Below are positions 1 to 55,966 of a stretch of 64,000 bases of DNA, one piece after another. The position numbers were made by a program, and so were the translations under genes. The notes under the pieces are model-generated. The model saw only the letters and a list, made by a program, of their open reading frames with translations. It did not search any database and was not told the DNA's origin. The stretch lies in assembly GCA_023248155.1 (NCBI GenBank), contig JAHFFE010000008.1, positions 6,515-70,514 of the forward strand, read 5' to 3'. Position 1 is the first letter of the stretch, and the number at the start of each line of letters is the position of its first letter. This DNA comes from Candidatus Omnitrophota bacterium. Its GTDB lineage: Bacteria; Omnitrophota; Gorgyraeia; 1-14-0-20-64-10.

Positions 1-3000
1 GCCAATCAAAACGGACAGGCTATACCGCTTTTTGCCGATCAATATGGTTTTGCGGTTGAAGGATCGGTCCGTCAGGTGGCCGTCCGGTTTGATGATCCGC
101 TCTCCGGCAAATCGCAAACCGAGAATGTTTATCTGCAATATAACCGCGATGCGAAGGGCGATTGGCAGATGGTTACCTACTGGGCCACGGACAAGGTTCG
201 TTGGGATGCCGGCCTGAAAGATAATGTGACCGGTCAGACCGTTGGCGGGTATCGCTATAACGAAACACCGCAAGAGCGCCAGCAGTTCGGAAAAACGCTG
301 GTTCGTGTTGATGGTCTGGTCCGGCGCGATGAAGCCGGCAACCTGAAAATTTTGGCGTTGGGCGGGCTCAATACCGAAAAACTGCCGGCGCTGTCTGTCT
401 TGACCAACAACGGTATGCGGCAATTTGAGGATGTTCGTGTCCGGTTCTATACCGATTCGACATTCCATGAAGTTTCGGCCGGGTCCAAGGTGGGTGGTGT
501 CGGTTATGAAGCGAAGGTCGATGGCAAATGGGTTCCTCTGCATCAGCTGGGTATTGTTCCCGAGGGAATTGATACCGACCGTTCCACGGTGCTGGCGCTG
601 GAATCAACCAAGATCTCTATTGCGGTAGACGCGCAAGGCAACTTCACGCTGGGTAAATCGACCGAGGGGCTTAAAGATCTTAACGGTAAGCCGTTGACCG
701 GTTCGTTAGTCGGCCACCATTCGGAAGGCAACTTTAACCTTTATGTTGGCAAGGGCGGCCAGGTCTTTTATCAGGGTGCCCGAGCAGCAGAAGGTTCTGT
801 CGGTTATCAGCGGGTGGTTCAGCCGTTCATCGCGCAGATTCAATCTCAGGGCAGTTATGGAACCGGTTACCCGGTGCAATATCTGCCGTCTGAAAATCTT
901 GAAGGCTATCGGGATCTGATTGCGCAAGGTTTGGGACTCACTACCGAGCAGATGACTGGACTCTACCCGCAAGGGAAAATTTCAGAAGCTTTCTCCAATC
1001 CGGTTATTTCGTTGGCCGACGCCAATATCCGCGTTACGGTCGATGGCGGCACTTATGGCCGCCAGTTGCCGGGCGAGGGTAACCATCTGGAAATGAACAC
1101 ACAGAATGGATCTTCATTCTTGTTAAGCGGCCAGTCGGGGTTGGATCTGGTTCTCGATCGAACAGAGCAAAGCGTGGGCGCCAACCGCTATACGATTTTG
1201 TCCGAATACAACGGAACAGAGGGTGCCACTGTTAAACTGGAAACGCCGTTGGTCATCCACGAATTTTCGGAGCAAATCCAGATTAACCCGAAGGCTGTCG
1301 CTGAGATTCGGAATTTATTTATTCGCGGCATGGAACGGTTCAAAGGTATGGCTGCCCCTGATTTTGTCAGCGCGATGAAGGACGAATTGCAGAATTCGGT
1401 CAGCCGCTTGACGGCCAGCGGCGTTACACAATCGGTTGAGCCGGTCTACCGCGTTGTTTCGCGGTTTGAACAGCCGGCGCAAGATCCATTGACCAGCCGC
1501 ATGGAATTAACACCGCTCAACGGCCGTATGGTTACGCCGGCCATCCAGGGTGATTCACTCAACCCGGCCTCGTCCATTTCCCTGATGGGAACCAATTACG
1601 CTGTTGGTTCCAAAATTGCGTTTGAAGGCCGGCCTGAGGGGCTGACATTGGCCACATTAGAGGAAGGCCGTGCCTGGAAATCGACCGTGGTTACTAATAC
1701 CGATTTCTTAAAGGCGGTTGGTCTTGAAAAGAACCAGGCGGTCGTAGTGATGCAGCACTATACCTCGGGTAATACGCGCGTGCCACAGGTATTGCGTTCT
1801 ATCAGCGTGGTCAATCCGTCTACCGGCAATAGCGAACTAATGAGCTATCGGTATGATCCAAAATCGGGCGCCGATGTTGGAAGCGGCCAGTTTAGCCTGC
1901 CATTGAACAGCACTCTGGAGTCGCTCCAGAAACAGTTCGGTTCTGTGGATGTTGATGGTTTCGATGCCGGTGCCGGGTTAGAAGTGGTTGGAATGACTGA
2001 TCTGCCGAAGATGACTGCCGTTGCTCTGCGCGAGCAAGGGCAAGAATTAACGCTCGGCATTCAGCGGCAAATGGCTCCGCAATCCGACCAGATGCTCCGG
2101 TTTACGGCTGGCATGGAAGCGGTTCTACCAGGATTGCTTGGCGAACTCGACCGGCAGGGTGTTTCTTTAGAGGCGTTCTTGGGTGCCACTGAGTACGGTC
2201 CAACCTATTCCGGCATGCTAAATCCTGTTTTAGCGGATGCGGCTGACGCTTCCTCCAACAGGGAATTGATCGGCATCGCGGTGCTGGCGCCGGAAGTTAC
2301 GCCGGTTGGCCGGCCGGTTCTGCAGCAAGCGCTGGTTCAACAGCTTTGGCTGGGCCGCAATGGTCAGATCGCTTATGACATCGTTAGCGGACGTGACACG
2401 GCGGTGGAATTGGTTCAATTCTTCGATCCGAAAACCGGCCAGCAGGGCATCGTCACGAACGATCGCACCGGCAACTCCATTTTCTTTGCCAAGGGAACCG
2501 AATGGATCATGCCGATGAAAGATACTCCTACCGTAGATATTGCATGGAAAGCCGAAGCGTTTAAGGTGGAAGGAATTTCTCTAGTGCTCGGCCAGCAAAC
2601 GGCCTGGTTGTTTGATACCAAGAATAACCGGTTTGCCCAGTTGGAAATTAATGGACAAAAAACACAGCCCGACAGTAATGGCTGGGCCCGCATTAATGAG
2701 GGCGATATCTATCAGCTCAGCCGCGACGACGATCCCCGCCGTTTGGAACGGCAGAAAGACGGATCGCTGGCTCCCACCATTGTCTCAACAAACACACTGC
2801 CACCTTCGATGCGCGCCGACACGCTTCCGGTGGCGGAAAAGATAACACCCGAACAACAGTTGGAGCAGTTGAAAGCTTCTGTGAAAAATGTCCGCGACCA
2901 GTTGGGTGAAGCGTTAGGTTCCGAGAGCGCTCCCGGAAAACTGCAAACCCAGACGCGCGAACAGGAAACCCGGCTTGCGCATCTGTATGGACAGACACAG

Positions 3001-22710: not shown

Positions 22711-22791
22711 TCAGAAATAGCATAGAAGATTTTTACACAAAAACCGGTTCACGCATGGCATACTTAAAGTAGGTCAAGGGTAAAAACACCT

Positions 22792-22832
22792 TTCGCGGGG
22801 TCGCACCAGCTCTCCCCGCGGAAGTTTTTATT
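22792..22832 (+). terminator. Rho-independent terminator between the two giant genes.
   Basis: A 9-bp GC-rich stem (TTCGCGGGG...CCCCGCGGAA) with a 13-nt loop is followed by GTTTTTATT. It lies 82 nt after the stop of giant gene 1. Confidence 0.6.
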
Positions 22833-22898
22833 ACCCCTCTTTTTCAAGAGATAAGAACTTTTCGATAAAGCGGTTTAGTTGACCCAAAAGGGGGATTC

Positions 22899-35396: not shown

Positions 35397-35564
35397 AAAG
35401 AATTTTTCCTCAAAAAATTTTCCATCCGGTTTTTCTCGCCAGTTGTTTGCTTTCACGCTATAATAAATAAACAAGAACCTGACCCTCATCTCGTCGGCCA
35501 GGAGTACAATCGGCTGCCGGGGTGGGGGAATTTCTTCCGGCGCTTTTAAAACAGATTGCGATTG

Positions 35565-38500: not shown

Positions 38501-39932
38501 CGGTTGGGATTGTGAAAAGAACAGCGCTGAGATTGCGGGACGGCAATGGATCGATGGTTCGATGACAGAACTGTTAAAGAATAACAACCTTCAGCTGGCA
38601 CAGGGGATGCCGTTGTTTCCGGCGAACCGGCCCGTTCCATCGGCGGTACCATCCGTGGAGGATCTGACCGGGCTGTCTTACCGGGGGATTCCGGAATCTC
38701 CGGGTTACGGCGGATCGGTTATTCTGGACGGCGCGAGCGTTTCGCTGACGGGCGGGACTTATCAACTGTCGATGGCCGGTATCGTTTCCGCCCTGCCTGT
38801 ACCGTTGCAGGATTATCAGGTTAAAGAACATCCGCTAGGTCAGCGGTGGGTTCCGCCGGAGCGGCTGCAGCGGGTTGTTGTCCATGACAGCAACAATCCT
38901 CTGGCCGCCGCGCCTTCGGAAACCGTTTTTGTGGTTCAGCAGGGGCCCGCCGGCAGTCCTTTCCTTGGCAACGGGAAGTACACCGTTGTCAGACCCGGTC
39001 TTTTACCGATCGATCCGCGCGTGGCCTCCGCGCCGGTTCCTGGCGTACGTGCTTCATGGGACCCTCAAGCGAAACAATGGATTCTGCCGGATCGGGTTGA
39101 AGATCGCCAGGTGATCTATTTTTATCCGGTACGCGAATTACAGGTCTTGTTTGAAAACGGCAAGTGGATTCCCCGAGTGAATTTAATAGGAATTATTCCA
39201 CAGATGGTTTCGTGGGAAGAGGCGGGCCGGTTGGCTCAAAACCCTGAGAGGGCTTTGGGGCCGAACCGGACCGTTTTGAAAGTGGGAGATTACGTAAGAG
39301 ATCCTCAAACCGGAAAACGATATGTTTCTTCGAATGGGCAGGGAGGTTTTTTCCAATATCAGTTGACGATTCACCGATATTTGAATTCGCAGGGAGCCGC
39401 CGAGCAGGAGATCGATTTTGTTTCTGAGGCTATTCGCGATACGGATCCTCCGATTGCTCTGAAGCCCGAGAGGTTATCTTCCGGTTCGGGACTGGAAGAA
39501 TTTTTAGGACGGCGGATTGCCGAAGCGCCCGGGTTTCAAGCGGTTGTGATTTCTGCCGAGACAGCGGCCGATTGCCCAGAGCTGGCCGGCGCTGAAGAGA
39601 ATACTTATCAATGGGGGAATCTGCAGCTGATAGTTTTGTCGGAGGAGCCTGCTCAATGGTCTTCCGTAATCACCGGATGGTTATCGCAGCCGAACCTAAA
39701 TTTGACGCTTTACGGTCGTGCCGGCGATCAGTCTCTCTCAGTACTTGGACAGATGCTGGCTGGTGCCGAAGAATCGATTGCGATCCAGGGACCGTACCCA
39801 CCGACGGGACAGAGCTTTTCAACCCTCTTTAAGATGATTCTGGCAAATTTGGCTGGCCTGGAAGAAGCAACTATTTCTGATGCTGATTTGAACCAGGCCG
39901 CAGAGCTGCTCGGATTAGGTAAATACGTATAA
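35565..39932 (+). CDS. Large secreted/anchored coiled-coil protein, paralog A (~1,455 aa). Signal peptide, TM anchor, Pro-rich spacer, conserved N-module, beta-rich C-domain, shared C-terminal domain.
   Basis: The ORF runs 35556..39932; the ATG at 35565 gives MTLNRFLRQTALLLLLSFFAQSGFPQP (signal peptide). A second hydrophobic segment is LFLVATGSLLFITALTLVFSI. The module WKQYQQALNSWFAAQQRQ... is shared with the genes at 40086 and 46417. The C-domain VDPRVASAPVPGVRASWDP...YFYPVRELQVLFENGKWIPRVNL is ~55% identical to that of the 46417 gene. Confidence 0.8.
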   Translation: MTLNRFLRQTALLLLLSFFAQSGFPQPLLEQALRVQNPAQTDVAARLKQSLDAGAEEKPVDPGQPEAPKRIVINTGNLNIPVSPNTEFVINADNVTLVPAGSSQPPQAAPLPSALPVEPPRALPAPEASSSSKTVEPKTVIPDSIGNPDPRLREDDTPRETVSRPSIPSARSAPSYSPTRPLKRLFLVATGSLLFITALTLVFSINQSGKSWKEFFFPSVTQIVPEQIESDINPPEQIDFVPAESASVFPDEGTFSGDRKVIQATSEQAGGVAHNPNEKLSPTEFEQQFYGHQIALLQGLADAQIPRQPDVQGIFSRLRIASVPGEDSGRNRIKAALARDQAEVDQAAAAVIKVLQQEQFTKTASRFNRVEITPATWKQYQQALNSWFAAQQRQLKRLVEVLAEFVEKDKQLLPGDNILLRDYYLDLTAHRLAEISVEEFQESRRLHDLMIRLGVELPFSALELPEGLGYGPSMVPAGPVPPDQLTPAVERPELLQKTLGSMHLLLAARVKRIEARLAFLDWEIKAYREMIGKDPQSRTAEYDRWNTELKITSRLSLVAQRRRILAQQDYLAVTGFLLQNQGQTRVDWQAAPAAIKKFRDQLRNEGKLPEQVASVFQVLFERAQSRLRDAEKIEFYERVFFYTGGTRDAVWRDASGKRVFGSYAFTGGIAYLDWKVRQEQRNQQQIERDQGKVADQFELRLALQRRQLAQLEYEQAVSDFSMAGLRRVLGIPTGAGSSGLTRAAPLVREPGTVALFSELGDLGEVADGLDLSDRMLTAAERQTLTVYGLPQDLPEPARKKAAATMVAQSQKAAAIAIRALWQQRIWAAQEADIARRVELSELETASDKYLDAVYQEELNSVRIFEMRRLTAELLMEGSLTLNQLLDLFRIPLAYRQDPAHSNRWFVFSNDADLLDFFGLSRWDLKARVGASDPAEYQRLSRLHDESVQLAIVAGRYTNGNRIDAKAHQTEIFAKYKAGTGWDCEKNSAEIAGRQWIDGSMTELLKNNNLQLAQGMPLFPANRPVPSAVPSVEDLTGLSYRGIPESPGYGGSVILDGASVSLTGGTYQLSMAGIVSALPVPLQDYQVKEHPLGQRWVPPERLQRVVVHDSNNPLAAAPSETVFVVQQGPAGSPFLGNGKYTVVRPGLLPIDPRVASAPVPGVRASWDPQAKQWILPDRVEDRQVIYFYPVRELQVLFENGKWIPRVNLIGIIPQMVSWEEAGRLAQNPERALGPNRTVLKVGDYVRDPQTGKRYVSSNGQGGFFQYQLTIHRYLNSQGAAEQEIDFVSEAIRDTDPPIALKPERLSSGSGLEEFLGRRIAEAPGFQAVVISAETAADCPELAGAEENTYQWGNLQLIVLSEEPAQWSSVITGWLSQPNLNLTLYGRAGDQSLSVLGQMLAGAEESIAIQGPYPPTGQSFSTLFKMILANLAGLEEATISDADLNQAAELLGLGKYV

Positions 39933-40085
39933 AGTCAGATAATTTTTTAATGATATTTTTGAGGCAAAAGCCATCGGTCTATGGCATACTTACACTAGAG
40001 CGATTGAATAAAAAGTTTCGTGGCGGAAGAACGGGTTTCGCCGCGAGATTTTTATTTAGCTCCCTTTTTTCAAAGATCAAAATAG

Positions 40086-43000
40086 ATGAAGAAAATCAGA
40101 TTTCGTCAAACCATCGCGATTGGGCTGCTGATGGCGTTCTCCGTTTCATCGGTGACGCCGGGAGGGGCGGCCGTATCCTCCAGCCGCGCCGACACGCTGC
40201 GCGCGCTGAATGTTTCCGAAGCGGATAACTCTGGTTTGGAAGAATCCCTTAAACGTCCTGATTTTTTGGCGTCGGCGGAGCCGTCCGTCCGTCCAGCCAG
40301 TCTGCCTGGTGCCCAGACAAATCCACCGCAGCGCCGCCGGTGGCCTTTAGTCGTAGCCAGCCTTTTGGCTGTTTCTTTCTTATTTCCCTCTCTGATCGGT
40401 CCTGAAAAGAAAGATCAAAATCCTAAAGTACAACCTCCACCTCCGATCACTCAGCGGGTTGCACGGAAACTCCGTGTGCCGCCGCCCATTCCCGATCGTC
40501 CATTGCCTCCCATCCCTGAGATTGATAAAGAAGATGCTCCTTTGCGTGATTTGCAGGCAGGAATTCTCGAGATTCTCGCCCGTTTCTCAGAACCGGGCGG
40601 AGTGCTTCGCCAGCAGGAAAGAGACCGGACCGAAAAACTATTCGATAAGGGCGCAGTCGGAAAAAACCAGGAACTATTCGCAAACTTCAATACGCTTCGT
40701 GATCGTGTTTTTGTCAGACAAGCCGCTGCCATCCGGATTCTGGAAGAATATATTACCGGTGATGAGAAAACACGGAACAATCTTTGGGACGATTATAAAG
40801 CGGCCATTGATGCCTGGTTTGACGCGCAGCAGGATGAACTCGAAGCGCGGGTTGATCTGACTTCCTATTTGCTTGACCAGGCGCGTAGTTTACATGCCAA
40901 GGGAGTAATTGGCGAACAAGACCTTATTAAAAAAGAAGTAGCTCACGACAGCGCCAGACTGATGGTGCGGGAGTTTTCACTTTACCGTCGATTTTTTGTG
41001 AATTTGAGAAAAATCGGGGTGGCATTGCCGTTTCCAAAAACCCAGCTGCCGGCGGCCGGCGGCAATTTCGTTCCTCAACTGGTTCCGCCAATCCCCAATG
41101 GCGAGCCGTCGCTTTCAGTGTTGGAAAAGCAGGAAATCCTTCTGGAATCGTACGATCTTATACAGGAACTTTTAACGCTCTACCAGGACCGTTTGCGACA
41201 GGGGCAGAAAATCAGGATCGATCATTTGCGCCGCATCGTCGCTCTGCGTGAAAAAAAAGTGGCCACTCAAATAGAGTTAGATCGCGCCCATTTCTTGAAT
41301 CAGCAGGCCGCATTAATGGAAATTCAGATCCGCCGTTTGGAAGACCAGAGGCAGTTTGTCGAGGCCTATAAAATTCTGGTGACGACCGAAGGCCTGGATC
41401 AGCTGCCGTTGAAATATCTGAATCATCCGCTGGTGCGCCGTGCTACCGGCGAAATTGCACTTGAATTGGGTTATGCCAAATCGGCTGGTGAGGCGCTGGA
41501 GTTTGATCCGTCCATAATTCTTTCTGTCATAGGGGACTTAAACCCAATTCGCACACTGATCTTTTTAAATGCGCAGCAAGATTTAACAACGGCCGTGTTG
41601 AAAGAAGCGGATGGTTTGGTTGAAACACTGCAGCTGCCTGAGGGCGCCGGGAGCAGGATGGGATTGGTTGCCTATACCGGAGCCGTGCTGCGGTCCTCAC
41701 TGGTTGCCAATCGCCGATTGCCAAATACCATTACAATACGGGAAATTCTAACTCAGCAGCATCAATACGATCAGGCGAAACTGCAACAGGAAGCCGGCCA
41801 ACTTGTCCGCCAGCAGATTTTACTCCGGATCAAACTGGGGCTTCCAGTCGGCGATGTCGAATCGACGCTTTCTCCGGAGGGCCGCCGTACGCTGGAGTTT
41901 TCTTCAAACGGTGTTCTACAGCCCGGATCTTTGAAAGATTTTGATGAAACGGATGATTTGACTCCCGAGATCGGGCAGGACAATCGCGCGCGCTTACTCG
42001 AGATCGGACAGCTTGTCAGAACGGCATTCGGCACAAGAGATCGGCTTACTCCGTTGCAGATCCGCCAATCGAGCGATGAACTACTGGATGCGGAACAGCG
42101 TCTTATGGCGGTGCGGATTCGCAGTCTTGCCCGGCAGAAAGAGTTAAATTCGGTGCTGACTGCCCAAGTCAGGGAAGGCGTGAAAACTGGCGCCCTCAAT
42201 AAAAGAGAATTGGCCGATGCCGAAGCATGGGAAGAACAGTCACGCGTGGGAGATGCTGAATCGGCCCGTTTGTTGGTTGATTTATTGAGCCGTAAACAGC
42301 TTTCTCGTGAGCAATTGGCGCAACTGCTGGATGTTGCTCCGTCAAAATTAGCCGGTCGTATTCCGGCCGGTGCCAAAGAAGTGATTGAGCGATTGAATGG
42401 CCCTGACTGGTTTGCTCCGGCCGCCGTGATTGGTCCGGAAAATCTCGACGAGTACCCGCTATGGAGAGCCGAGCATAACCGTCTGGTGAATGACGAACGG
42501 CAGATTTTACGGGATGCGCAAGCCAGCCGCACCACGGAGTTGAGTAAGCGTCTTGATCAAGAGAAGGCACTGGTTAAAACAAGGACTTCCACCCTGCAAT
42601 CTGAAGAAGCAGCCCAACATGATTTGACTCAGGGGGGAATGCAGCTGAATTTGCTCGGACGGTCTCGCGAGATGGATGAATGGCTTCGGGATCACGGGAT
42701 CGATCTTCCCAGTCCGATTGATCCGCGGCCTGCCGGATTACCGACGATAGATGATTTAAGAAATGGTTTACGCGGCCGCAACTTACCGCTTCAGCCGGAA
42801 GCTCCATTCTATGTTGCGATTCCCGGCCAGGCCGATAGTAAAGCGCTCAGTGCCGGATTTTATGCGCCCGATGCGGTTGTTTTTCTGTCCGGGCCTCCAA
42901 AAACCTCTCCCGATCATATTCGGGCGCCTGTTTTTGGCGTGGATGACTGGAATGTGCTGAAAGAATTTTTTACGGGTGCTTCAATCACCGATTCAAATGC

Positions 43001-44315
43001 CAACGGTGAGCCGCGGCTCCGGTTAGGCCGTGTTACGGTGAATCAGGTGAATCCCTCTACCGATTTTGATCGGGGCAACGGACGGGCTGTTATCCATCTG
43101 GATGGGTATGAGTTGGTGAGGCGTCCGGCGCAGTTTGCTCCGGGGTTGCTATCGAGTTTGGCGGAAGCGTGGAATCCCCAGCTGGTTCCGGAAGAAAAAG
43201 TAGAAGATCGAAAAATGGTGGTTGGTTATTATGTGCGGGTTGTCGAAATTGGTGATGACGGCGTCGAACGGAAAAGAGTGGTGGGGGTCCTTCCGGCGGA
43301 AATGTCATGGACTCAGGGGGGACGATTGTCTGAGAAAATGTCATTACCCAATCAAAATCCGAATTCATTCCCCAATTATCTTAAAGAAGTTGCTCCAAGG
43401 CACTACGGGTGGATTACGCCGATTGACAGCTTGTTGTCTGATCCGGCGACTGGCGAGCCGCTGGTTTTCAGAAAGGAAGGCAATGAGTTTGTCTATTTGA
43501 GAGTTCGTCTTTATCAGCGGGACCTGGCTGACGGCACCATTGAAGACGAGCTTGGTTTTGATGAAGAGCCGGTGGTTGTTCCGGAGGAGGAAGAAGAAAA
43601 TCTACAACTGCCGGTGCCGGTCGCGCCGCCGGTTAACCCGGCTCCTCAACAACCGAATGCTGCCGCGCCTGTTTTACCGCTGCCGGAGCCGGCTGTCCGC
43701 GAGGTGAAACTGCTTCTGACTCAGCTTCCGTCCGGCGATTTTGCCGTCCATACCTATGCAGGAACCTATCGGATGGATGGCTTATCCATCGGGCAGGCCC
43801 CTAGCAATGCTTTTGATGAATGGCTGGCAAACCACTCCTCTGACGGGGCTCTTCTTGCGAAAGAGCCGTTGAATTTGCTTCCGATCGAGCTGTCATCCAA
43901 CGAACAGATTTTTATTGAAAGCGGATTGATGGCGGAAGCAGACCGAGTTGCTTTGTCGCGGCAATTGGCGATGTCCGGCATCACCAATGTCAACATTCAT
44001 TGGGTCGGCAGCAACCAGGATGAGGTTAGCGCTGTCTCCGATACCGTTCTCGCGCTTCGCCAGACTGGAACGCCGGTTGTGATGATGGTCAGCCCGGCGT
44101 ACCAAGGTGCGCTCGAACGGATGTTTGGTATCGGGGGTATTCATAAAGAACTTCGGCCGACGATCGGTATTGTGAGCGGCCTTGCCAATACAAGGGTTGT
44201 TTTGATGGCGTTGTTGACCAATATGGCGTTTCTTTCCCGCTTAACGGTTTTTGACGGTGTTTCATCCGGTCTTGAAGAGAACGCCACGGCGTCTGTTTTC
44301 CAATTCATGGCGTAA
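40086..44315 (+). CDS. Large secreted/anchored coiled-coil protein, paralog B (1,409 aa). Signal peptide, TM anchor, Pro-rich spacer, conserved N-module, shared-type C-terminus.
   Basis: ATG at 40086 gives MKKIRFRQTIAIGLLMAFSVSSVTPGGAAV (signal). A hydrophobic anchor WPLVVASLLAVSFLFPSLIG follows. There is a Pro-rich stretch, PPPPITQRVARKLRVPPPIPDRPLPPIPE. The N-module WDDYKAAIDAWFDAQQDELEARV...IGVALPFP is paralogous to the genes at 35565 and 46417. A long coiled-coil region is present. Confidence 0.8.
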   Translation: MKKIRFRQTIAIGLLMAFSVSSVTPGGAAVSSSRADTLRALNVSEADNSGLEESLKRPDFLASAEPSVRPASLPGAQTNPPQRRRWPLVVASLLAVSFLFPSLIGPEKKDQNPKVQPPPPITQRVARKLRVPPPIPDRPLPPIPEIDKEDAPLRDLQAGILEILARFSEPGGVLRQQERDRTEKLFDKGAVGKNQELFANFNTLRDRVFVRQAAAIRILEEYITGDEKTRNNLWDDYKAAIDAWFDAQQDELEARVDLTSYLLDQARSLHAKGVIGEQDLIKKEVAHDSARLMVREFSLYRRFFVNLRKIGVALPFPKTQLPAAGGNFVPQLVPPIPNGEPSLSVLEKQEILLESYDLIQELLTLYQDRLRQGQKIRIDHLRRIVALREKKVATQIELDRAHFLNQQAALMEIQIRRLEDQRQFVEAYKILVTTEGLDQLPLKYLNHPLVRRATGEIALELGYAKSAGEALEFDPSIILSVIGDLNPIRTLIFLNAQQDLTTAVLKEADGLVETLQLPEGAGSRMGLVAYTGAVLRSSLVANRRLPNTITIREILTQQHQYDQAKLQQEAGQLVRQQILLRIKLGLPVGDVESTLSPEGRRTLEFSSNGVLQPGSLKDFDETDDLTPEIGQDNRARLLEIGQLVRTAFGTRDRLTPLQIRQSSDELLDAEQRLMAVRIRSLARQKELNSVLTAQVREGVKTGALNKRELADAEAWEEQSRVGDAESARLLVDLLSRKQLSREQLAQLLDVAPSKLAGRIPAGAKEVIERLNGPDWFAPAAVIGPENLDEYPLWRAEHNRLVNDERQILRDAQASRTTELSKRLDQEKALVKTRTSTLQSEEAAQHDLTQGGMQLNLLGRSREMDEWLRDHGIDLPSPIDPRPAGLPTIDDLRNGLRGRNLPLQPEAPFYVAIPGQADSKALSAGFYAPDAVVFLSGPPKTSPDHIRAPVFGVDDWNVLKEFFTGASITDSNANGEPRLRLGRVTVNQVNPSTDFDRGNGRAVIHLDGYELVRRPAQFAPGLLSSLAEAWNPQLVPEEKVEDRKMVVGYYVRVVEIGDDGVERKRVVGVLPAEMSWTQGGRLSEKMSLPNQNPNSFPNYLKEVAPRHYGWITPIDSLLSDPATGEPLVFRKEGNEFVYLRVRLYQRDLADGTIEDELGFDEEPVVVPEEEEENLQLPVPVAPPVNPAPQQPNAAAPVLPLPEPAVREVKLLLTQLPSGDFAVHTYAGTYRMDGLSIGQAPSNAFDEWLANHSSDGALLAKEPLNLLPIELSSNEQIFIESGLMAEADRVALSRQLAMSGITNVNIHWVGSNQDEVSAVSDTVLALRQTGTPVVMMVSPAYQGALERMFGIGGIHKELRPTIGIVSGLANTRVVLMALLTNMAFLSRLTVFDGVSSGLEENATASVFQFMA

Positions 44316-44325
44316 ACGCGCTAAA

Positions 44326-46401
44326 ATGGGCGACATGATCAGAAAAACAATTACGGCGATAGTTGCCGGGTCGATGGCGCTGGTTTCTTCAGCGCCGGCA
44401 TCTCTTTTTATCAATTCTGCTCAGCCAGTTTGTCTGCGTTCCCTCCAGGGCGGTGAATCATTTAGAGTTATTTCGGGTATGGAAGAAAAACTAACTGCTC
44501 AAACAGTTACCGGTGCTTCCGATTCCGGAGCGCTCGATCGGCGTACTGTGCTTAAGGCAGGTGCTCTCAGCATAGGCGCTTCCATTCTAAAGTGGGCTCG
44601 ATTATTGCCCGACGATGCCATTTTTGGACAGGAGGGGAAAGCGGTGCAACCTAAAGGCGCTCTGTCTTTGCTGGCCAAAGAATTGGGTGGTAGAAGCGAT
44701 CTTTCGATCATTGTTTGGGATCCATCCAGCATCGGGGGACTTCCCGGTTTTTTTGATCGGGCAGTTCAGGCCGGCGTGACCCGCGTCTGGGTCAGCGGAT
44801 TCCGGTTCAATCAGATGGACAATGCCCGCCAGAAAGCTTTTTTTAATCAGGCTCGCGTTTCCGGCCTGCGCTCCATCGGGTTCATTGACGGTAATTACGA
44901 TTGGGCTAACAATCCCGCGTTTGTAAAATCACATTACGAAAAACTGATTGTCACACTAACCCAGTTTCACAATGATAAATTATTGGGTCGTCTCAAAATC
45001 GTGTTTGCGGCCGATATTGAGCCTTGGACCGGGCCCAATGGAAAGAATTGGAATGGTGATTTCAAGCCGTCGACCGACTTGGTTTGTAACTGCGTTATTC
45101 CGGAAATCAGCGGATTTGCTCAAAGAACAGGCCGTGTTGATAGAACAAATCTGATTACGCTCGTTATGCCATTCTGGTCTCAGAATGGTACGAAGCTGGA
45201 TAATGACCTCGTGGTTAAAGGAGTTGAAGATCTACCCAATACCACGCTGGCTCTGATGAGTTACCGGAATTCCGCTCTTGAAATCGAAAGTGTTCTTAAT
45301 GACACGCGAAGTCGTTTAAGAACAACACCGGCACGGGATCTCCGCTGGGCGTTCGGAGGAGAGACGCTTCCACCCGGTGAAGTAGGCGGGCAGCACGTCA
45401 CTTTTCACGGAAGATTAAAACGGGTTCCTCTGGAACTGTTGCGTGTGATCCGCCGGCTTTCGGAGAGTGAGCGTAAACAGTTGGATGAGGTTTTTATTCA
45501 TTTTGCAAGTCCTGTTGCCGCCGATAAAGCGATTAAGGAATGGCTGGAGAGTCCTGCTGAGGAACCGGCAAAAGGAAAAGATTTTTCAGTCAGAGGCGGC
45601 CAGGCAAAGATATCCAAAGATGGTTCGCGTCTGGAATTTCAAATGGATCTGGGCGATTTGGCCGATCAATCGTTAGTCGCTGTGGCACTGGTGAGAACCG
45701 ACACCTGGTATCCTCAACCGTATGATAATGCAAGCGCCCAGGTACCGGTGCAGGTGGATAAGGACGGTGTTGGCAATGTGGTCGTGTTTGCGGCCGACCG
45801 GAGCTCGTTTGTCGGAGAACAAACGAAAGGCCGCGCCGTGATCATTCTGACACCCACTGATTTTCAAGCTGTAGTAAAAGACAGACTCAACCCCGCACGG
45901 TTAGAACTCCGCGCTCAGAAAATCATCGTATTCGATAAAGAGGGAAAAGCCTCGGTTGTTAATCGGTTGCCTCGCGGCGGTCTGGAAGAATCGATCCGGC
46001 TTCCGGCGCATGCGACCGATGAACGCGTTATTATTTTGACGCCGGACACCGCTGTCGTCGGCCTGGAACTGCTGCGCGGATTTCGTCCCGAGGCAGGCGA
46101 GAAAATCCCGGTGGCGGTGATTGTGCGCAACGCGGTTCAACATTCCCAATTGCTTGATTTATTGGAGGCCCAGTCGATTCAGCTGCAGTTTCCGGTCGTT
46201 GACCTTTCTGAGACGGGCCAAAATCTTGGGGAGGCCATCGTTGCGCTTCAGGAAGATGCCTGGATTGCCTCTCTCAATCCGTTAGTGATCGACACGATGG
46301 CCGCGTTCCGCCAGCTGGGCACATTCCTCGGTATTCCTGAACTGGACCAGCGCCTGCTGGACAAATGGCTGGACGAACAGGGAGTCGCTTCCGCGGCGTA
46401 A
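44326..46401 (+). CDS. Secreted protein (~691 aa from ATG 44326; alternative start 44479 gives a Tat-type leader). Its C-terminal ~110 aa are nearly identical to the C-terminus of the 46417 gene.
   Basis: The track ORF 44251..46401 overlaps the upstream gene, so an internal ATG is the likely start. ATG 44326 gives MGDMIRKTITAIVAGSMALVSSAPASLF (signal-like). The downstream MEEKLTAQTVTGASDSGALDRRTVLKAGALSIGASIL is a textbook twin-arginine leader if translation starts at 44479. The C-terminal PLVIDTMAAFRQLGTFLGIPELDQRLL is shared with the next gene. Confidence 0.7.
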   Translation: MGDMIRKTITAIVAGSMALVSSAPASLFINSAQPVCLRSLQGGESFRVISGMEEKLTAQTVTGASDSGALDRRTVLKAGALSIGASILKWARLLPDDAIFGQEGKAVQPKGALSLLAKELGGRSDLSIIVWDPSSIGGLPGFFDRAVQAGVTRVWVSGFRFNQMDNARQKAFFNQARVSGLRSIGFIDGNYDWANNPAFVKSHYEKLIVTLTQFHNDKLLGRLKIVFAADIEPWTGPNGKNWNGDFKPSTDLVCNCVIPEISGFAQRTGRVDRTNLITLVMPFWSQNGTKLDNDLVVKGVEDLPNTTLALMSYRNSALEIESVLNDTRSRLRTTPARDLRWAFGGETLPPGEVGGQHVTFHGRLKRVPLELLRVIRRLSESERKQLDEVFIHFASPVAADKAIKEWLESPAEEPAKGKDFSVRGGQAKISKDGSRLEFQMDLGDLADQSLVAVALVRTDTWYPQPYDNASAQVPVQVDKDGVGNVVVFAADRSSFVGEQTKGRAVIILTPTDFQAVVKDRLNPARLELRAQKIIVFDKEGKASVVNRLPRGGLEESIRLPAHATDERVIILTPDTAVVGLELLRGFRPEAGEKIPVAVIVRNAVQHSQLLDLLEAQSIQLQFPVVDLSETGQNLGEAIVALQEDAWIASLNPLVIDTMAAFRQLGTFLGIPELDQRLLDKWLDEQGVASAA

Positions 46402-46416
46402 TGTGGTGATAATCCT

Positions 46417-49400
46417 ATGAAAAAACAATCAGTTTTTTATCCTCGAAAAGTAATCGCTTTTTTTATTTTTTTGGTATTTCTTTCAACCAGCGTCGGAGTC
46501 AACCCATCGTCCAAAAATTTCCCGGATGTTTCGCCTGACGCGCTGCGAGCCGTTAGCGGCGCGGAGTCGGCGGCTCAGCCGGGACTTGAAGAGTCTCTGA
46601 AAGAATCCGCCGGCCTATCTCGCAGCGGATGGTCGCTTAATTGGCTGGCCGGTATTACATTTGCGTTAACGGCAGCGTTGGATTGGGGCGAACCGGTGGC
46701 TGCCCAACAGGCGCAGCCGTCCCCGTTCGTAGCGACCCTCGATAATTTTCCGTCCGGCCCGGAATACAGTCGTTCCTCTGAAACCTTGAACCGTTATTTG
46801 AAAACCCTGGTGCCGGAACTGCCAGGGCCGGTCATTCTGACGCCGGGCGCCACGGTCCGTATCATCGCTATTCATGAGACTAAAGACCAAACAGGAGAAA
46901 TCGACGGCGCCTATGTGACGCTGACGCCTTCGAAGGAAACGATTGTGGTGCGCGCCGGTGACAACCGCTGGCTGGTTCCCGCCGGTGTTTCGTTAAAAGT
47001 CCATATCGACCGCAGGAAAAAAGAAACGCGCGTTTACCGTGAATCGGAAGTCACACGGCTGGCGGTTGAATTATCTGACATTGCCGGGCTTTCTGATCTG
47101 ATGGACCGTTTTGATGTGGAGGGGCCGGTCGTTGGCGCAACGCGGTTTAAATCCAGCGGAAAACTGGTGATGGGAGGAATTATTTATCGCGACGGGGGCG
47201 TTCGCCATTGGAATATTGTGCCGATTGATCCGGGATCTTCCGTTACGGTGATCGCGCCCGATGGCACGGAATCGACGGTGCCGGCCTTAAAACCGTTGCG
47301 TTTGATTATTCAAGACGGACAAGCGCGCATTGATCCGAAACAGCAATACAGTTCGGTGCGAAAGCCGGCATTTTTGCCGCCGGCGGTAACAGGCCGCTTC
47401 GATGCGGTGCCGGTGGTCGAAAACCCGAGCCCGATCGTCCGATCGAGCCGTGCTGCTCAGCCGGTTCCGGCTGCTTCGGTCCGCCGTTTCATTCCGCCGA
47501 AATTGGATCCGGAACTTCCGAAAATTCCGGAGCTGCAACTGGTAGCGGCGATTCCATCCAGTGTGACGGCCCGGCCGGCCGCAGATTCTCAATTCACGGA
47601 CTCTCGCAAAAAAGAGCCGGCTCCAATGCCGATGCCGGCCGATCTGCCGCGGACGGCTCCGGTCATAGCAGCAGACCGCGTCCGTGTCCGGCAAAATCCG
47701 CGCAATCCGGATCTGTCTCCGAATGTTGGACGGAACGATTCGGGTCCCGGCCCGTCCTCTCCGGATATTGCCGTGAAAGATAGAACACCGGTTCCTCCAG
47801 CAGAGGCATCGCCGGTTGCGTTGGCTCCAATTGCAGCGGGGGAGGCTCCCGTTCGCCGTGTTGCACCGGTTCCTCCTGTGGATCTCCCGGTTCCGCCACC
47901 CTCCGTCGTAGCCGGTGGTAATTCTCTGGTCCGTTTGGATCGTTTGCCGCGCGAGCCGGCGGTTTCACCGGTGCCCGCTCGCTCGATTCCAGAAAGTGAG
48001 TTATTTTCGGAGAGTCTTAATTTCGCGGATCGATCGCCGGTGATTGACGCTCCTCAGCCACATCCGAAATTGGCCGAACCGCCGGTAGGTGTCGTTAATA
48101 CCACACGTCGCCGAGCCCCGGCGTCAAAGCCGGCGGAAGAGTTAATCTCTCCGGTGCCATTGTCAGAGCCACTTTCAGCGGAATCGACTGTTGAATTACG
48201 CAAGATTGAAGGGGATATCCTTAACAGCATGGCGCGATTACACCAGTGGGCCGTCGATGCTCTCAACAATCATGCGGCCCGCGTGGCCGAACAGCGGCAA
48301 AAGAAAGCAGGCACCCCGGCGGATAGAAACATTGCCGATTTCAACACGCTGAAAGCCGATGTCGATGCGGCAATGGGACGTGTTATTCTTGTCCTGCGCG
48401 ATTATGTCAGGGCCGATGGCCCGGCGCGCGCCGGTTTTTGGAACCGGTATCAACAGGCAGTCCAGAATTGGTTTGACGCGCGCGAGCGGCAGGTTGGCGC
48501 TTATCTGGAACTGGCCGATGATTTATTACAGCGCGATCGTCAGTCGGCTTCCAACCAAGGCAATACCAGCACGCGTGACCTAGAGCGGTCGCAGGCTGCC
48601 AGCGAAATTGCCGGATTCACGCTTCTGGAATTAACCGCCTTCCGTAATCTGTACGACGACCTCATTGAGCTGGGTGTTCCGGTTCCGTTCCTGAACGCGG
48701 CTATGCCCGATGAAATTGGTTACACGCCCTATTCCGTTCCGGTCATTCCCAGTTTGCAAAAGCCGGCAGCCGCGGCCGACCGTGCCCGTTTTTTAGAGAA
48801 GGCCTTCAATCAAATCGCCGAAATTTTACGGCTGAACAGTCAAAAACTGGGTGTTGATATCCGATTGCGTCTATCGGAATACCAGCGGTTTAAAAACAAT
48901 TTCTATTCCACTCCGCGGGGAGGCACGTTACCTCAAGGCACGAGCAGGGAAGAGATGAACTATGCCAGTTTTCTCAGGGATGAGGCGATTTTTCAGCGGG
49001 CCCAACAGCAGCGCCTTTCGGCTCAAATCAATTTTGTTGAAGCATTACAAGTTTTGTCGCAGACGCAGGGGCAGCCGTTTTTGCCGGCTGACAATGAACA
49101 GGTGCGTGCGGTTGTGGCCAACTATGCCGTTGAACATGGATACCCTCCTGACATTGGTCAGGAGGTGGTTATTTCGGTGGTTGGTTTAAGAACGGTGCGC
49201 GACACGATCTTTATCTCCGCCCAGGAACGGCTTTCGCGGGCGATCTCGGATGAAATGGCGGCGCGGGTTGTTCTGTCTCAAAAATTAATCGTCTACCTCC
49301 AGGATGACTTCAAACGGATGGTTCATGCCAACCTACGTGTTCCCGGCGCCTACCCTGCCTGGGACATTTTCGTTGCCGAATATAAACTCCGGCAGGCTCG

Positions 49401-51615
49401 GCAACAACTCGCGATCACTCAACTTGCGCAGGAAAACGATACGGTCAGAGCTCAGCTTGGTTTACCGCGCAGTAATATTGAGCTGGCTGTGCCGCCAGCA
49501 GTGCGCAGTATTCTGGAAACCAATAGACAGTCGCTTCTGCCGGGTTCTTCCATCACGGAATCAACGGATAGTTTTAAAGAATGGATTAAAGGGGCTGATG
49601 CCAGCGTTTTATCGCCGTTGGATACCGCAGAGAACCTTGCGGCCACTTTTCTGGGATTGGTAAATCCTCCGTCAGAGCCCAAGGCGGATGATTTGGTTCG
49701 CCGGCAGGCCGAAAACGAGCGGAAGATGCTCGAGGCCAAAATCAAGATGCTTGAAAACGAAAACTGGCTGGCCAAGGCGTTGGCCTCTATCCGTGAATCA
49801 ACCGAAGCAACCCATCCCGGATCTGTAACGAAGCCGGAATTGGAAGATGCCCGTAACTGGCGCGCGCAAATTGAACTGAGAAACGCGGAAATAGCCGTAA
49901 TTCGTGCCGATATCGTCCGGCTAGAACCTGGGTTGGATCCGGTCCGGTATGCCGAGCTAAGAGGGGAGTACAATCGGCTCGTTTTAGAGCGGTTGCGTGT
50001 TGCCAGCCGAGTTAATAGAGAGCGGATGGATGTTCTTGATGGCCGCTTGAAGATTGAGGGAATTCTGGAATTGAATGCCGAAGCCTGGAGGAGGTTTGAC
50101 GCCGCTTACGCGGCGGGTACTCCGCAACCTCTTAACCAGATTTTAGGACAACTCAGGAATGCGGGAGCTGTCCGCCGCACTGATTCCATTGACAGAGCGA
50201 TTCAAAGCTGGGGACAGACAAACGATTATGGCAAGCTGTTAGAACAAGCGCTCGCGCGTAATGAAGAACTGGTTCAACGGGGCGCTTCGCTCGATGCTCA
50301 CTCGTCTCGGCCGGCCTTGCCGACGCTTGAAACGGTTCTTTTCGATAATAGTAGTAAGTCGCAAACCTATCCGGATAACCGTTCCGAGGTTTTCACGGTC
50401 ACTTTGGGCAAAGGGGGAGTTCCTCAGCCGCTGCAGATTGCCGGCCCTTTCCGTATGGACGCGCTGGTTATTCCGTCCTATGTTTCTCCGCGTGTCGAGC
50501 CCTATCAGAATGCGCATGATGATCTTCGTCCCCGGGACTGGCAAGCTCCGCGCGATTCACTCGAGAAAGTCGATCTTCTTGACTCGACTGCGCCCACCGC
50601 ATCCGGCCGGTTCGGCGCCGGGTCTTTCTTCCGTTACCGGCAAACGCCCGCTCTTTCTTCCGAAAACACGACCGGCCTGTCGACATTCCTGAGGCCGGGT
50701 GTATTACGCGTCGATCCACGGGTGGCCTCTATGCCGGTTCCGGGCGTTCGCGCTTCATGGGATCCTAATAAGAAACAATGGACTTTGCCTGACAAGGCTG
50801 AAGACCGCCAGGTCGTTTATTTTTATCCGGTGCGTAAATTAGATATTGTGTTTGAAAATGGGAAATGGGTTCCCCGGGTAAATTTATTTGGAATTGTTCC
50901 TCAGCCTGTTTCGTGGAGAGAAGCGGGTCAACTGGCAGAAACACCCCAACGGACTTTAGGTCCGAACCGGAGCGTTTCGAGAGTGGGAGAATATGTAACC
51001 GATCCATTGACGGGGGATCCCTATGTTTCTTTTAATGTGGAGGGTGGTTTTTCCAGATACCGTATTAATGTGACCTCGTATCAAACCCCTGAAGGAAAAG
51101 TTGAGCAGGAGTTCAGTTTTATTTCCGAGACTATTGGCGATACCGATGCGCCGCGTTCTGCCATAATTGGAACCGCGGCCGCCGCATCCGGACAGGAAGA
51201 ATCGATTGTACTTCCGGCCGGCGCGACCAACGGCAATATAATTATTTTCACGCCAGAGACGGTCGAGGCTGGGGTTGAACTGATGCTGAATCGGTTTCGC
51301 TTGGCGGCCGGAGAGAAAATTCCGGTGGCCGTGATCGTGAGCGACGCCGTTCAGCATTCCCATGTTTTGGATTTACTGGAAGGCCAACCTGTTGAATTAC
51401 TGTTTCCAATCATGGACCTTTCCGTGACTGGAGATAGCCTGAAAGAGGCGATTGATGCGCTTGCGGCAGATGCCGAAAGTTACTCGCTAAAACCGCTGGT
51501 CATCGACACGATGGCCGCGTTCCGCCAGCTGGGCACATTCCTCGGTATTCCGGAACTGGACCAGCGTTTGCTGAACGAATGGCTGGATCAGCAGGGAGTT
51601 GTTTCCCAGGCATAA
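46417..51615 (+). CDS. Large secreted/anchored coiled-coil protein, paralog C (1,732 aa). Signal peptide, TM anchor, long Pro-rich low-complexity stalk, conserved N-module, beta-rich C-domain, shared C-terminal domain.
   Basis: ATG at 46417 gives MKKQSVFYPRKVIAFFIFLVFLSTSVGV (signal). An anchor WSLNWLAGITFALTAALDW follows. A Pro-rich stretch is encoded at ~47400-48160. The N-module WNRYQQAVQNWFDARERQV...LGVPVPF and the C-domain VDPRVASMPVPGVRASWDP...YFYPVRKLDIVFENGKWVPRVNL are paralogous to the 35565 gene. The last ~120 aa match the 44326 gene. Confidence 0.85.
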   Translation: MKKQSVFYPRKVIAFFIFLVFLSTSVGVNPSSKNFPDVSPDALRAVSGAESAAQPGLEESLKESAGLSRSGWSLNWLAGITFALTAALDWGEPVAAQQAQPSPFVATLDNFPSGPEYSRSSETLNRYLKTLVPELPGPVILTPGATVRIIAIHETKDQTGEIDGAYVTLTPSKETIVVRAGDNRWLVPAGVSLKVHIDRRKKETRVYRESEVTRLAVELSDIAGLSDLMDRFDVEGPVVGATRFKSSGKLVMGGIIYRDGGVRHWNIVPIDPGSSVTVIAPDGTESTVPALKPLRLIIQDGQARIDPKQQYSSVRKPAFLPPAVTGRFDAVPVVENPSPIVRSSRAAQPVPAASVRRFIPPKLDPELPKIPELQLVAAIPSSVTARPAADSQFTDSRKKEPAPMPMPADLPRTAPVIAADRVRVRQNPRNPDLSPNVGRNDSGPGPSSPDIAVKDRTPVPPAEASPVALAPIAAGEAPVRRVAPVPPVDLPVPPPSVVAGGNSLVRLDRLPREPAVSPVPARSIPESELFSESLNFADRSPVIDAPQPHPKLAEPPVGVVNTTRRRAPASKPAEELISPVPLSEPLSAESTVELRKIEGDILNSMARLHQWAVDALNNHAARVAEQRQKKAGTPADRNIADFNTLKADVDAAMGRVILVLRDYVRADGPARAGFWNRYQQAVQNWFDARERQVGAYLELADDLLQRDRQSASNQGNTSTRDLERSQAASEIAGFTLLELTAFRNLYDDLIELGVPVPFLNAAMPDEIGYTPYSVPVIPSLQKPAAAADRARFLEKAFNQIAEILRLNSQKLGVDIRLRLSEYQRFKNNFYSTPRGGTLPQGTSREEMNYASFLRDEAIFQRAQQQRLSAQINFVEALQVLSQTQGQPFLPADNEQVRAVVANYAVEHGYPPDIGQEVVISVVGLRTVRDTIFISAQERLSRAISDEMAARVVLSQKLIVYLQDDFKRMVHANLRVPGAYPAWDIFVAEYKLRQARQQLAITQLAQENDTVRAQLGLPRSNIELAVPPAVRSILETNRQSLLPGSSITESTDSFKEWIKGADASVLSPLDTAENLAATFLGLVNPPSEPKADDLVRRQAENERKMLEAKIKMLENENWLAKALASIRESTEATHPGSVTKPELEDARNWRAQIELRNAEIAVIRADIVRLEPGLDPVRYAELRGEYNRLVLERLRVASRVNRERMDVLDGRLKIEGILELNAEAWRRFDAAYAAGTPQPLNQILGQLRNAGAVRRTDSIDRAIQSWGQTNDYGKLLEQALARNEELVQRGASLDAHSSRPALPTLETVLFDNSSKSQTYPDNRSEVFTVTLGKGGVPQPLQIAGPFRMDALVIPSYVSPRVEPYQNAHDDLRPRDWQAPRDSLEKVDLLDSTAPTASGRFGAGSFFRYRQTPALSSENTTGLSTFLRPGVLRVDPRVASMPVPGVRASWDPNKKQWTLPDKAEDRQVVYFYPVRKLDIVFENGKWVPRVNLFGIVPQPVSWREAGQLAETPQRTLGPNRSVSRVGEYVTDPLTGDPYVSFNVEGGFSRYRINVTSYQTPEGKVEQEFSFISETIGDTDAPRSAIIGTAAAASGQEESIVLPAGATNGNIIIFTPETVEAGVELMLNRFRLAAGEKIPVAVIVSDAVQHSHVLDLLEGQPVELLFPIMDLSVTGDSLKEAIDALAADAESYSLKPLVIDTMAAFRQLGTFLGIPELDQRLLNEWLDQQGVVSQA

Positions 51616-55923: not shown

Positions 55924-55966
55924 GGGTTATGGCATATTTAGAGTGGGTCAAGAGGAGGGAACTAAA

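Follow-up and report, generated by a model that had tools for sequence, protein, structure and literature searches.

Large cysteine-poor proteins with common terminal tags upstream of a carbohydrate-binding operon in Candidatus Omnitrophota

Bacteria of the phylum Omnitrophota encode some very long proteins. Open reading frames (ORFs) exceeding 20 kb, domain-poor and poorly conserved, have already been described (PMC10066038), and the long proteins usually carry signal peptides and/or transmembrane (TM) helices and are often 'multi-enzyme' or repeat scaffolds (bioRxiv 10.64898/2026.06.07.730766; bioRxiv 10.1101/2023.11.21.568195). Of 916 catalogued long proteins, 137 have no Pfam match at all, and 46% of long Omnitrophota proteins are predicted to have TM helices only and are read as membrane-anchored and largely cytoplasmic (bioRxiv 10.64898/2026.06.07.730766). 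The lifestyle is described as host-dependent or predatory, with roles in attachment and surface degradation proposed for the giants (PMC10066038; bioRxiv 10.1101/2023.11.21.568195). This article concerns six consecutive large genes, G1-G6, in a 64,000-nucleotide stretch of a Candidatus Omnitrophota genome (assembly GCA_023248155.1, contig JAHFFE010000008.1, positions 6,515 to 70,514; hereafter the window), and the ten smaller co-directional genes, D1-D10, that follow them up to position 62548. The locus is a real, unusual case within the known giant-protein phenomenon and reveals no new machine. Features shared by both ends of the encoded proteins suggest, with a probability of roughly 0.45, that G1-G6 form a polymorphic set of tagged cargo with common sorting tags, of the Omnitrophota long-protein type, and are not the parts of one machine.

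The first of these tags is an N-terminal leader. In G2-G6, and in all relatives of the paralog family to which G3, G4 and G6 belong, it consists of a Sec-type signal peptide, an [A/T]LR[P/G/A/V] motif and, 10-26 residues after the LR motif, the sequence G-[L/V/M/A]-E-E; the proteins P0011, P0014-P0016 and P0018 have it as well. The LR motif often stands right behind an AxA site, as in ...AYA-LRP, AHA-LRP and AFA-LRP. Among the 554 non-redundant ORFs of 200 amino acids (aa) or more in all the DNA retrieved, 14 carry the pattern; all 14 are large, cysteine-poor and encoded on the operon strand, and the complete ones all have A or V as their last residue. Over its first 58 codons, G3 differs from its ortholog at 19 codons by synonymous changes only and at 15 by nonsynonymous ones. 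Because the amino-acid sequence is conserved and synonymous changes are in excess, the leader must be translated and under selection, which rules out an untranslated stretch upstream of an internal start.

Within this clade the leader is often followed by a second signal-like segment, frequently containing RR, with a positively charged N side and a frequently AxA-like C side. Some of these segments resemble signals of the twin-arginine translocation (Tat) pathway: DRRTALAAG in G2 (within VDRRTALAAG...LPAQD, aa ~146-170), DRRTVLKAG in G5 and TRRDFLKG in P0016 each precede a mildly hydrophobic stretch, and in P0016 and G2 an AxA-like site comes after the RR segment. Two targeting signals in series are also a feature of thylakoid-lumen presequences. 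Unlike ordinary Tat signals, however, the RR segments here lie inside the protein, 60-145 aa away from the N-terminus and preceded by a Sec-like signal peptide; RR is missing from G3, G6 and many relatives, and a Tat route is implausible for G2, a polytopic protein of 4,165 aa. The ESPR of type V secretion is a ~25-aa extension ahead of the signal peptide and resembles the leader described here in being an unusual supplement to the normal signal peptide of very large secreted proteins. The order differs: here the full signal peptide comes first, then LRP...GLEE and the second signal-like segment, and there is no Pfam match.

The second tag lies at the C-terminus. When only sequences from the window are compared, two pairs are significant, G2-G3 (31% identity, type A) and G5-G6 (68%, type B), and neither pairwise nor shallow-profile comparison of the six C-termini finds anything significant between types. 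The metagenomic protein L037_6946 bridges types A and B, which gives one 13-member family covering the last ~150 aa, with a profile that matches G2, G3, G5 and G6 at 133-186 bits and G1 weakly, at 20.4 bits and over the C-terminal half only. The original prediction had assigned a common C-terminal domain to all six proteins; it holds for these four, weakly for G1 and not for G4, whose C-terminal region (type C) clusters instead with L023_3879, L025_3 and L025_4675. A metagenome scan with the type-A domain gave no relative. AlphaFold models show a beta-alpha-beta, Rossmann/flavodoxin-like fold, with a predicted local distance difference test score of 70-88 for G3 and 68-86 for G5, and a Foldseek comparison of the model with the PDB returned nothing at E<1e-3.

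Cargo of the type IX secretion system (T9SS) has a similar layout, being diverse, often very large and equipped with a signal peptide at the N-terminus and, at the C-terminus, a conserved sorting domain of about 100 aa. The T9SS domain is a beta-sandwich and is covered by NCBIfam models. The beta-alpha-beta fold modelled here is therefore not of the T9SS type; nothing in G1-G6 comes near an NCBIfam threshold, and no T9SS genes lie nearby.

Beyond the domain itself, the tails of all tagged proteins end in -A or -V, with Ser or Thr at position -2 in nearly half. Those of G1-G6 are given in Table 1; others seen are TTAA, LVQA, LRSA, GSQV, FTQV, GSGV, GNGV, ESGV, GSLA, LTAA, GESA, RRAA, GAYV, SIGA and FRGA. 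When the ORFs are split without bias, all 11 that are large and cysteine-poor have the A/V ending, against 16 of 165 others. Cysteine is avoided to an extreme degree: G1-G6 contain 9 in 17,049 aa, 3 of them in G1, compared with 27 in the 3,609 aa of D1-D10 (P~1e-42). The sequence GLEE, for its part, appears 11 times in G1-G6 where 0.5 would be expected. It is found in the leader and again directly before the C-terminal domain in G3, G5, G6 and P0011 (as SGMEE in P0018), and LAG[A/L]EE occurs inside type-A domains. A DNA-level repeat was rejected as the explanation of GLEE, since the codons vary from copy to copy.

Great length (several thousand residues), scarce cysteine and C-terminal sorting information are likewise combined in the adhesins and RTX proteins of the type I secretion system (T1SS), such as LapA, SiiE and HlyA, and the tails ...LTSA and ...TTAA presumably resemble the end of HlyA. 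T1SS substrates have no N-terminal signal peptides, whereas G2-G6 do; nor are there RTX, Ig-like or cadherin repeats in these proteins, or an ATP-binding cassette, membrane fusion protein or TolC gene in the window.

The relatives of the locus show how constant the tags are and how variable everything between them is. D1, being conserved (BLAST identity of 61% in the locus of P0015), served as the anchor for this comparison. The scan yielded 14 loci from species-representative genomes, at 41-66% identity and mostly titled Candidatus Omnitrophota/Omnitrophica, and 27 metagenomic loci. By sequence, it is these relatives that place the window most probably in an uncultured member of the phylum. 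In the closer relatives with upstream sequence (D1 53-66% identical, GC 58-67%), at least one cysteine-poor protein with the leader or the tail is encoded directly upstream of D1; these proteins, 924 to more than 3,235 aa long, vary in body and C-terminal type. P0014 is followed by D1-, D2- and D3-like genes, and P0015 has a 5,257-aa protein without Pfam matches before it and a D1 ortholog after it. A profile of the three paralogs matches just two more proteins in the retrieved loci, P0015 strongly and L023_3879 weakly. The bodies are either replaced or down to about 25% identity, while the neighbouring D1 stays 61-66% identical. Locus L008 has an ortholog of G3 with 65% BLAST identity; there, the gene at the G4 position has only the 57-residue leader in common with G4, and the upstream giant has mainly the C-terminal domain in common with G2.

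Many of the replaced bodies carry enzyme domains. Among the positional equivalents, Pfam finds PP2C in five proteins with the same leader and tail, as well as ARMT1-like, CofD, UDPGP, NTP_transferase, DUF4954, AA_kinase, GHMP/galactokinase, methyltransferase, NAGPA and acyl-CoA dehydrogenase domains. Synteny is preserved in one respect, the link with the carbohydrate-binding operon, and lost in another, since the number and identity of the large genes vary and only the G2 family is conserved. Identical end-tags on unrelated, fast-replaced bodies point to substrates of a common sorting route and not to subunits of a fixed machine. The pattern also differs from that of Rhs and contact-dependent inhibition polymorphic toxins: here both ends are conserved and the middle varies, and no Rhs, YD or haemagglutinin-type domains are present.

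Three further observations come from the relatives. In L034 another leader-bearing ORF (LRAPQRERRAQTTGLEE, L034:21729-23380) lies downstream of the D operon, so the tagged class is not restricted to the upstream side. P0016 (L003:10001-15084, GCA_023818695.1), whose second signal is textbook Tat-like (TRRDFLKG...ANA), stands by itself among tsf, pyrH, frr, serS, dnaX and recR, and the gene after it encodes a lipoprotein with a PHP-like HVHSxxSDG motif. In L019, L020 and L021, from metagenome-assembled genomes labelled Verrucomicrobia or Lentisphaeria, the orthologs of D1 and D2 seemingly form one fusion of ~1,200 aa and the upstream leader-bearing protein is absent.

With the described Omnitrophota giants the cluster has much in common: the phylum, the combination of signal peptides (in G2-G6) and TM segments, the carbohydrate-active neighbours, the scarcity or absence of annotated domains and, in the relatives, positional equivalents of the described 'multi-enzyme' long-protein type. 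As to size, the cut-off for a giant has been set at an ORF above 20 kb (Seymour 2023, PMC10066038) or at 10,000 aa and more (Nielsen & Lui 2026, bioRxiv 10.64898/2026.06.07.730766). G1, which spans no fewer than 7,569 aa (22.7 kb or more) and has its 5' end beyond the window edge, exceeds 20 kb; the 77,498-bp NCBI record would leave at most about 6.8 kb upstream of the window. G2-G6 are below both cut-offs, and the proteins are mostly of 0.7-7.5 kaa, not 10 kaa or more. Divergent SecA_DEAD, C39 or S8 domains characterise 'most giant genes' in West-Roberts (bioRxiv 10.1101/2023.11.21.568195), whereas G1-G6 lack SecA_DEAD, C39, S8 peptidase, dockerin and TSP3 domains; G1 and G2 are non-repetitive, with no detectable internal repeats; and genes for carbohydrate-binding modules (CBM30, CBM9 and CBM11) adjoin the cluster, but type II secretion system (T2SS) and type IV pilus (T4P) genes do not occur in the window. 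A search by term found neither the leader nor the C-terminal domain, the A/V tail or the cysteine avoidance in the three papers (PMC10066038; bioRxiv 10.1101/2023.11.21.568195; bioRxiv 10.64898/2026.06.07.730766). The architecture maps onto neither T9SS nor T1SS, and its giant, poorly annotated ORFs are a known Omnitrophota trait (PMC10066038; bioRxiv 10.1101/2023.11.21.568195; bioRxiv 10.64898/2026.06.07.730766).

Table 1. Coordinates of genes and features in the window
Feature	Position	Strand	Remarks
G1	76(1)..22710	+	ORF call; frame open to base 1
G1 C-terminal ~87 aa	22447..22707	+	weak match to C-terminal half of shared C-terminal domain; ends ...GRQA
G2	22899..35396	+	4,165 aa, polytopic giant
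G2 bipartite leader	22986..23408	+	signal peptide aa 35-57, ETLRP, GGLEE aa 83, Tat-like segment aa ~146-170
G2 TM-like block (about 11 segments)	27894..29168	+	aa 1666-2090, hydropathy
G2 conserved module	31710..34748	+	aa 2938-3950, ~1,000 aa
G2 C-terminal domain, type A	34944..35393	+	ends ...LTSA
G3	35556..39932	+	paralog, 1,455-1,458 aa; database-called start 35565
G3 variable head segment	39003..39479	+	aa ~1150-1308
G3 C-terminal domain, type A	39483..39929	+	preceded by SGLEE; ends ...GKYV
G4	40086..44315	+	paralog, 1,409 aa
G4 C-terminal region, type C	43554..44312	+	ends ...QFMA
G5	44326..46401	+	691 aa (ENA call); 716 aa from first possible start 44251
G5 C-terminal domain, type B	45952..46398	+	preceded by GGLEES; ends ...ASAA
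G6	46417..51615	+	paralog, 1,732 aa
G6 C-terminal domain, type B	51169..51612	+	ends ...VSQA
D1-D5	51669..57606	+	signal-peptide proteins; CBM30/CBM9/CBM11 domains and unannotated ~290-aa domain
D6	57812..58597	+	signal-peptide protein; one TPR and two PDZ
D7 and D8	58614..59722	+	D7 membrane protein; D8 secreted, DxDxDG-type repeats
D10	60599..62548	+	free-standing DUF4954/LbH protein

Chance cannot give ORFs of 4-22 kb at 55% GC, so G1-G6 are real genes; G4 and G6 are also identical, and G2 near-identical, to proteins encoded in the NCBI/ENA records of the locus. The gaps measure 188 nucleotides (nt) between G1 and G2, 159 nt between G2 and G3, 153 nt between G3 and G4, about 10-15 nt at G4/G5 and G5/G6, and 53 nt at G6/D1. 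No intrinsic terminator-like site was found in the three larger gaps; the G2/G3 gap holds one promoter-like site, the total of such sites being at chance level. Co-transcription of the cluster is plausible from this layout. Rfam and tRNA scans found no RNA genes in the window and hence neither an rRNA nor a tRNA marker. Pfam gave no match at E<=0.01 to any of the six proteins, and PDB sequence searches with G1 and G5 gave no meaningful match.

The original prediction had listed six consecutive co-directional genes for a giant of at least 7.5k aa with a nucleoside triphosphatase (NTPase) core, a polytopic 4.2k-aa giant, three paralogs with Pro-rich spacers, coiled coils and beta-rich heads, and a ~690-aa Sec/Tat-type secreted protein, followed by carbohydrate-binding genes, and had seen in them a dedicated trans-envelope machine outside any named secretion system. 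As an inventory this largely stands, including the absence of a match between the six proteins and any named system or family. What is not borne out are the NTPase core, the canonical coiled coils and, as argued below, the machine.

G1 shows no hydrophobic segment in its in-window part, the N-terminus lying outside the window. Its sequence contains three matches to the Walker-A pattern against 0.69 expected from shuffles (P=0.03), none of which has a Walker-B-like motif downstream. In the absence of Walker B and of any Pfam, NCBIfam or PDB P-loop match, a P-loop NTPase core is not supported. No homolog of G1 was found anywhere, inspection of the relatives having reached 10 kb upstream of D1, and a genome scan with its first 1,000 aa gave no relative.

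By hydropathy G2 has a signal-like segment and about 13 more hydrophobic ones, 11 of them clustered in the block listed in Table 1. The AT skew falls to -0.29 at positions 28001..30000, overlapping this block, and the drop probably reflects coding, hydrophobic codons being T-rich. Collinear homologs of G2 lie upstream of D1 in L032 and L034, and polytopic giants turn up again in other loci. The conserved module is 47% identical to the L034 homolog and 36% to that of L032, with many invariant W, G, P, R and D residues; its profile found no relative in the PDB, and a word-indexed search with aa 2666-4165 gave nothing, not even G2 itself. Judged by these comparisons, the G2 family is the sole conserved large component of the cluster, and G2 may be a membrane platform. 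One polytopic giant per cluster, conserved as a family together with its ~1,000-aa module, is also what a trans-envelope machine with a G2 channel would need.

G3, G4 and G6 are paralogs, with pairwise identities of 23-49%. In G3 the leader (aa 1-58) is followed by a TM segment (aa 188-210), a Pro-rich spacer, a helix-prone body, a beta-rich head, which the AlphaFold model shows at moderate confidence, and the C-terminal domain. G4 has the leader DTLRAL...SGLEES, an RRRW-TM segment (aa 87-105) and a Pro-rich spacer; G6 has the leader DALRAV...PGLEES, a TM-like segment (aa ~70-90), a long Pro-rich spacer, a helix-prone body and a head. The spacers are rich in Pro and Gly, and the helix-prone regions contain little of either but much E, K, R and Q, with patchy heptad periodicity. 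An anchor, a Pro-rich spacer and a helix-prone body recall TonB/TolA or periplasmic adaptors, and G4 has a sub-threshold match to RND_mfp (E=0.039); both would suit stalks of a machine.

The head of G3 has a history of its own. Its variable segment shares about 20% identity with orthologs to which the rest of G3 is 70-85% identical, and it lies inside a stretch with 49% identity to the G6 of this genome (50440..51207 on the G6 side). Since the head has diverged from its orthologs and falls within a G6-like stretch, the sequences suggest that a head module was exchanged between paralogs. G3, G4 and G6 are best read as anchored, elongated proteins with a recombining head module. With G6 as query, a word-indexed search of 5.8 billion proteins retrieved nothing but G6, and one with the family profile found G3 and two orthologs and nothing else. 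An exhaustive search of 1.84 billion representatives with the three-paralog profile matched 8 proteins, namely four that are the window's own or an ortholog, one related fragment and three distant members (P0014-P0016).

G5 combines the leader CLRSL...SGMEE and its Tat-like segment with a body of repeating beta/alpha units (in a low-confidence model) and the type-B domain. Gene calls differ as to its start (44251..44480) and give 716 aa, 691 aa or, in P0013, 640 aa. In the 640-aa call, which begins at the Met of SGMEE, the Tat-like segment would come to lie at the N-terminus; two forms with different targeting could result from the use of alternative starts.

Downstream, D1-D4 carry their CBM30, CBM9 and CBM11 domains behind ordinary signal peptides. 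An unannotated domain of ~290 aa ('RAMWVWD...'), common to the middle of D1 (52430..53310) and D5 (56626..57606), is kept across Omnitrophota loci and has no Pfam match; a relationship between G5 and this domain was tested and rejected. D6 is of interest for its two PDZ domains. The small-x-[A/V] tails of the large proteins resemble class I PDZ ligands, as in tail recognition by Tsp/Prc, CtpA and DegS. D6 differs from these readers in having no recognisable protease domain; its PDZ domains would be a candidate reader of the -A/-V tails, and a D6-like N-terminus is also found in the D operons of L013 and L015. D7 has a sub-threshold HAMP match. D8 (59180..59722) is a secreted protein of 180 aa without a Pfam match but with at least four D-x-[D/N]-x-D-G-x-x-[D/E] repeats (DTDSDGKPDEW, DRNHDGHRE, DRNGDGNPD and DQNFDGKPD), which by their sequence look calcium-binding. 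D9 is a 6-phosphogluconolactonase/NagB-type protein. The D10 domain is fused into leader-bearing long proteins directly upstream of a D1 ortholog in two relatives, L018:2255-9022 and L022:480-5444; both fusions include AA_kinase, and that of L018 NTP_transferase too.

The tags, their specificity to the class, the synteny and the variability are matters of observation. On the reading of G1-G6 as tagged cargo, the signal peptide would carry the chain through Sec, and the lack of cysteine would keep disulfides from forming ahead of another step of translocation or assembly. Recognition of the C-terminal domain and tail, possibly by the periplasmic TPR-PDZ protein D6, would then serve envelope anchoring or assembly, and the cargo would act at the envelope alongside the co-encoded secreted carbohydrate-binding proteins D1-D5. 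The CBM/PDZ operon is best read as a conserved functional partner of the cargo.

Several points weigh against this reading. The topology of the leader is paradoxical: the second segment is charged like a signal peptide, its positive side pointing towards a part of the chain whose export by the first signal peptide should already have taken place. The kinase, nucleotidyltransferase and acyl-CoA dehydrogenase domains of the relatives are nucleotide-dependent and normally cytoplasmic. D1-D5 have signal peptides yet are not cysteine-poor, so cysteine loss is not simply a mark of export. Membership is uneven, too: the C-terminus of G4 has no detectable match or link to the 13-member family, and the membership of G1 leans on the weak C-terminal match, the tail and the scarce cysteine, its N-terminus being outside the window. 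What ties the PDZ domains to the tails is co-location only, and the D operon of L015 has a D6-like gene but no leader-bearing protein directly upstream of D1. Finally, a sorting machinery for the tagged class was not identified in the window or in the examined flanks, where T2SS and T4P genes were likewise not found.

A bolder form of the same idea takes the bipartite leader, the alpha/beta C-terminal domain and the -A/-V tail as the signals of an undescribed Omnitrophota sorting pathway that would carry cysteine-free giants and multi-enzyme proteins over two barriers, to the surface or into a host, with a D6-type reader and a G2-family giant in its machinery. This extension is tentative and rather unlikely. 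Polarity of the second segment and the nucleotide-dependent domains in the relatives, moreover, keep alive two rivals, one with cytoplasmic bodies and the other with delivery into a host.

According to the former, the proteins would be inner-membrane-anchored, mostly cytoplasmic scaffolds or multi-enzyme assemblies for envelope or glycan metabolism, the second segment acting as a stop-transfer anchor; the first signal peptide would be cleaved, leaving only a short LRP...GLEE peptide in the periplasm. Such bodies would account for the relatives' enzyme domains (all those listed above except DUF4954 and NAGPA) and would fit the Rossmann/flavodoxin-like fold, common among cytoplasmic proteins, the adjoining cytoplasmic-type sugar-metabolism proteins D9 and D10, the latter's domain being fused in L018 and L022, and the published 46% TM-only class (bioRxiv 10.64898/2026.06.07.730766). 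The charges of the second segment, positive on the N side with an AxA-like C side, are nevertheless those of a signal peptide and not of a stop-transfer anchor, and L009_683, L037_6946 and others have no second hydrophobic segment. The extreme cysteine avoidance is left unexplained, and the genes adjoin and are co-directional with those of secreted CBM proteins. Cytoplasmic assemblies are for these reasons unlikely.

Delivery into a host or prey would make the proteins effectors or contact weapons, in which two signals serve to bring the unfolded chain first across the producer's envelope and then into the partner's membrane or cytoplasm, the CBM proteins binding glycans on the partner's surface. 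The enzyme domains, or so far unrecognised domains in G1-G6, would act inside the partner. The host-dependent or predatory lifestyle and attachment role described for Omnitrophota are congenial to this proposal; phosphatases, kinases and nucleotidyltransferases are typical of effector repertoires, the replacement and divergence of bodies beside a stable D1 and the head swap of G3 fit an arms race, and cysteine avoidance fits transport in an unfolded state. But the window and examined flanks hold no T2SS/T4P and no type III, type IV or type VI secretion system, no toxin/immunity pair is recognisable, and G2, polytopic and 4,165 aa long, is unlikely to be translocated. We know of no experimental precedent for such a bipartite bacterial signal. 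An effector role is accordingly a long shot.

The dedicated trans-envelope machine of the original prediction, with G1 as cytoplasmic NTPase-driven giant, G2 as membrane channel, G3, G4 and G6 as stalks spanning the periplasm, G5 as secreted accessory and the C-terminal domain as an interface that could serve oligomerisation, has in its favour the tight co-directional packing with three larger gaps free of terminator-like sites and the likenesses of G2 and the paralogs noted above, but it is the least supported reading and very improbable, given that neither an NTPase domain nor Walker B was found in G1, that relatives have one or a few different leader- and tail-bearing proteins at this position, that P0016 occurs alone amid housekeeping genes, and that all of G2-G6 bear the same leader, which is unusual for machine subunits.

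How the giants of Omnitrophota are made, exported and used is an open question, for which the locus offers handles: a leader, a C-terminal domain that can be modelled, an A/V tail, cysteine avoidance and a CBM/PDZ operon. Proteins of 0.7-7.5 kaa with very different bodies, some of them enzyme-bearing in relatives, fall in one tagged class, and the question moves from the role of each giant to the destination of the whole class.

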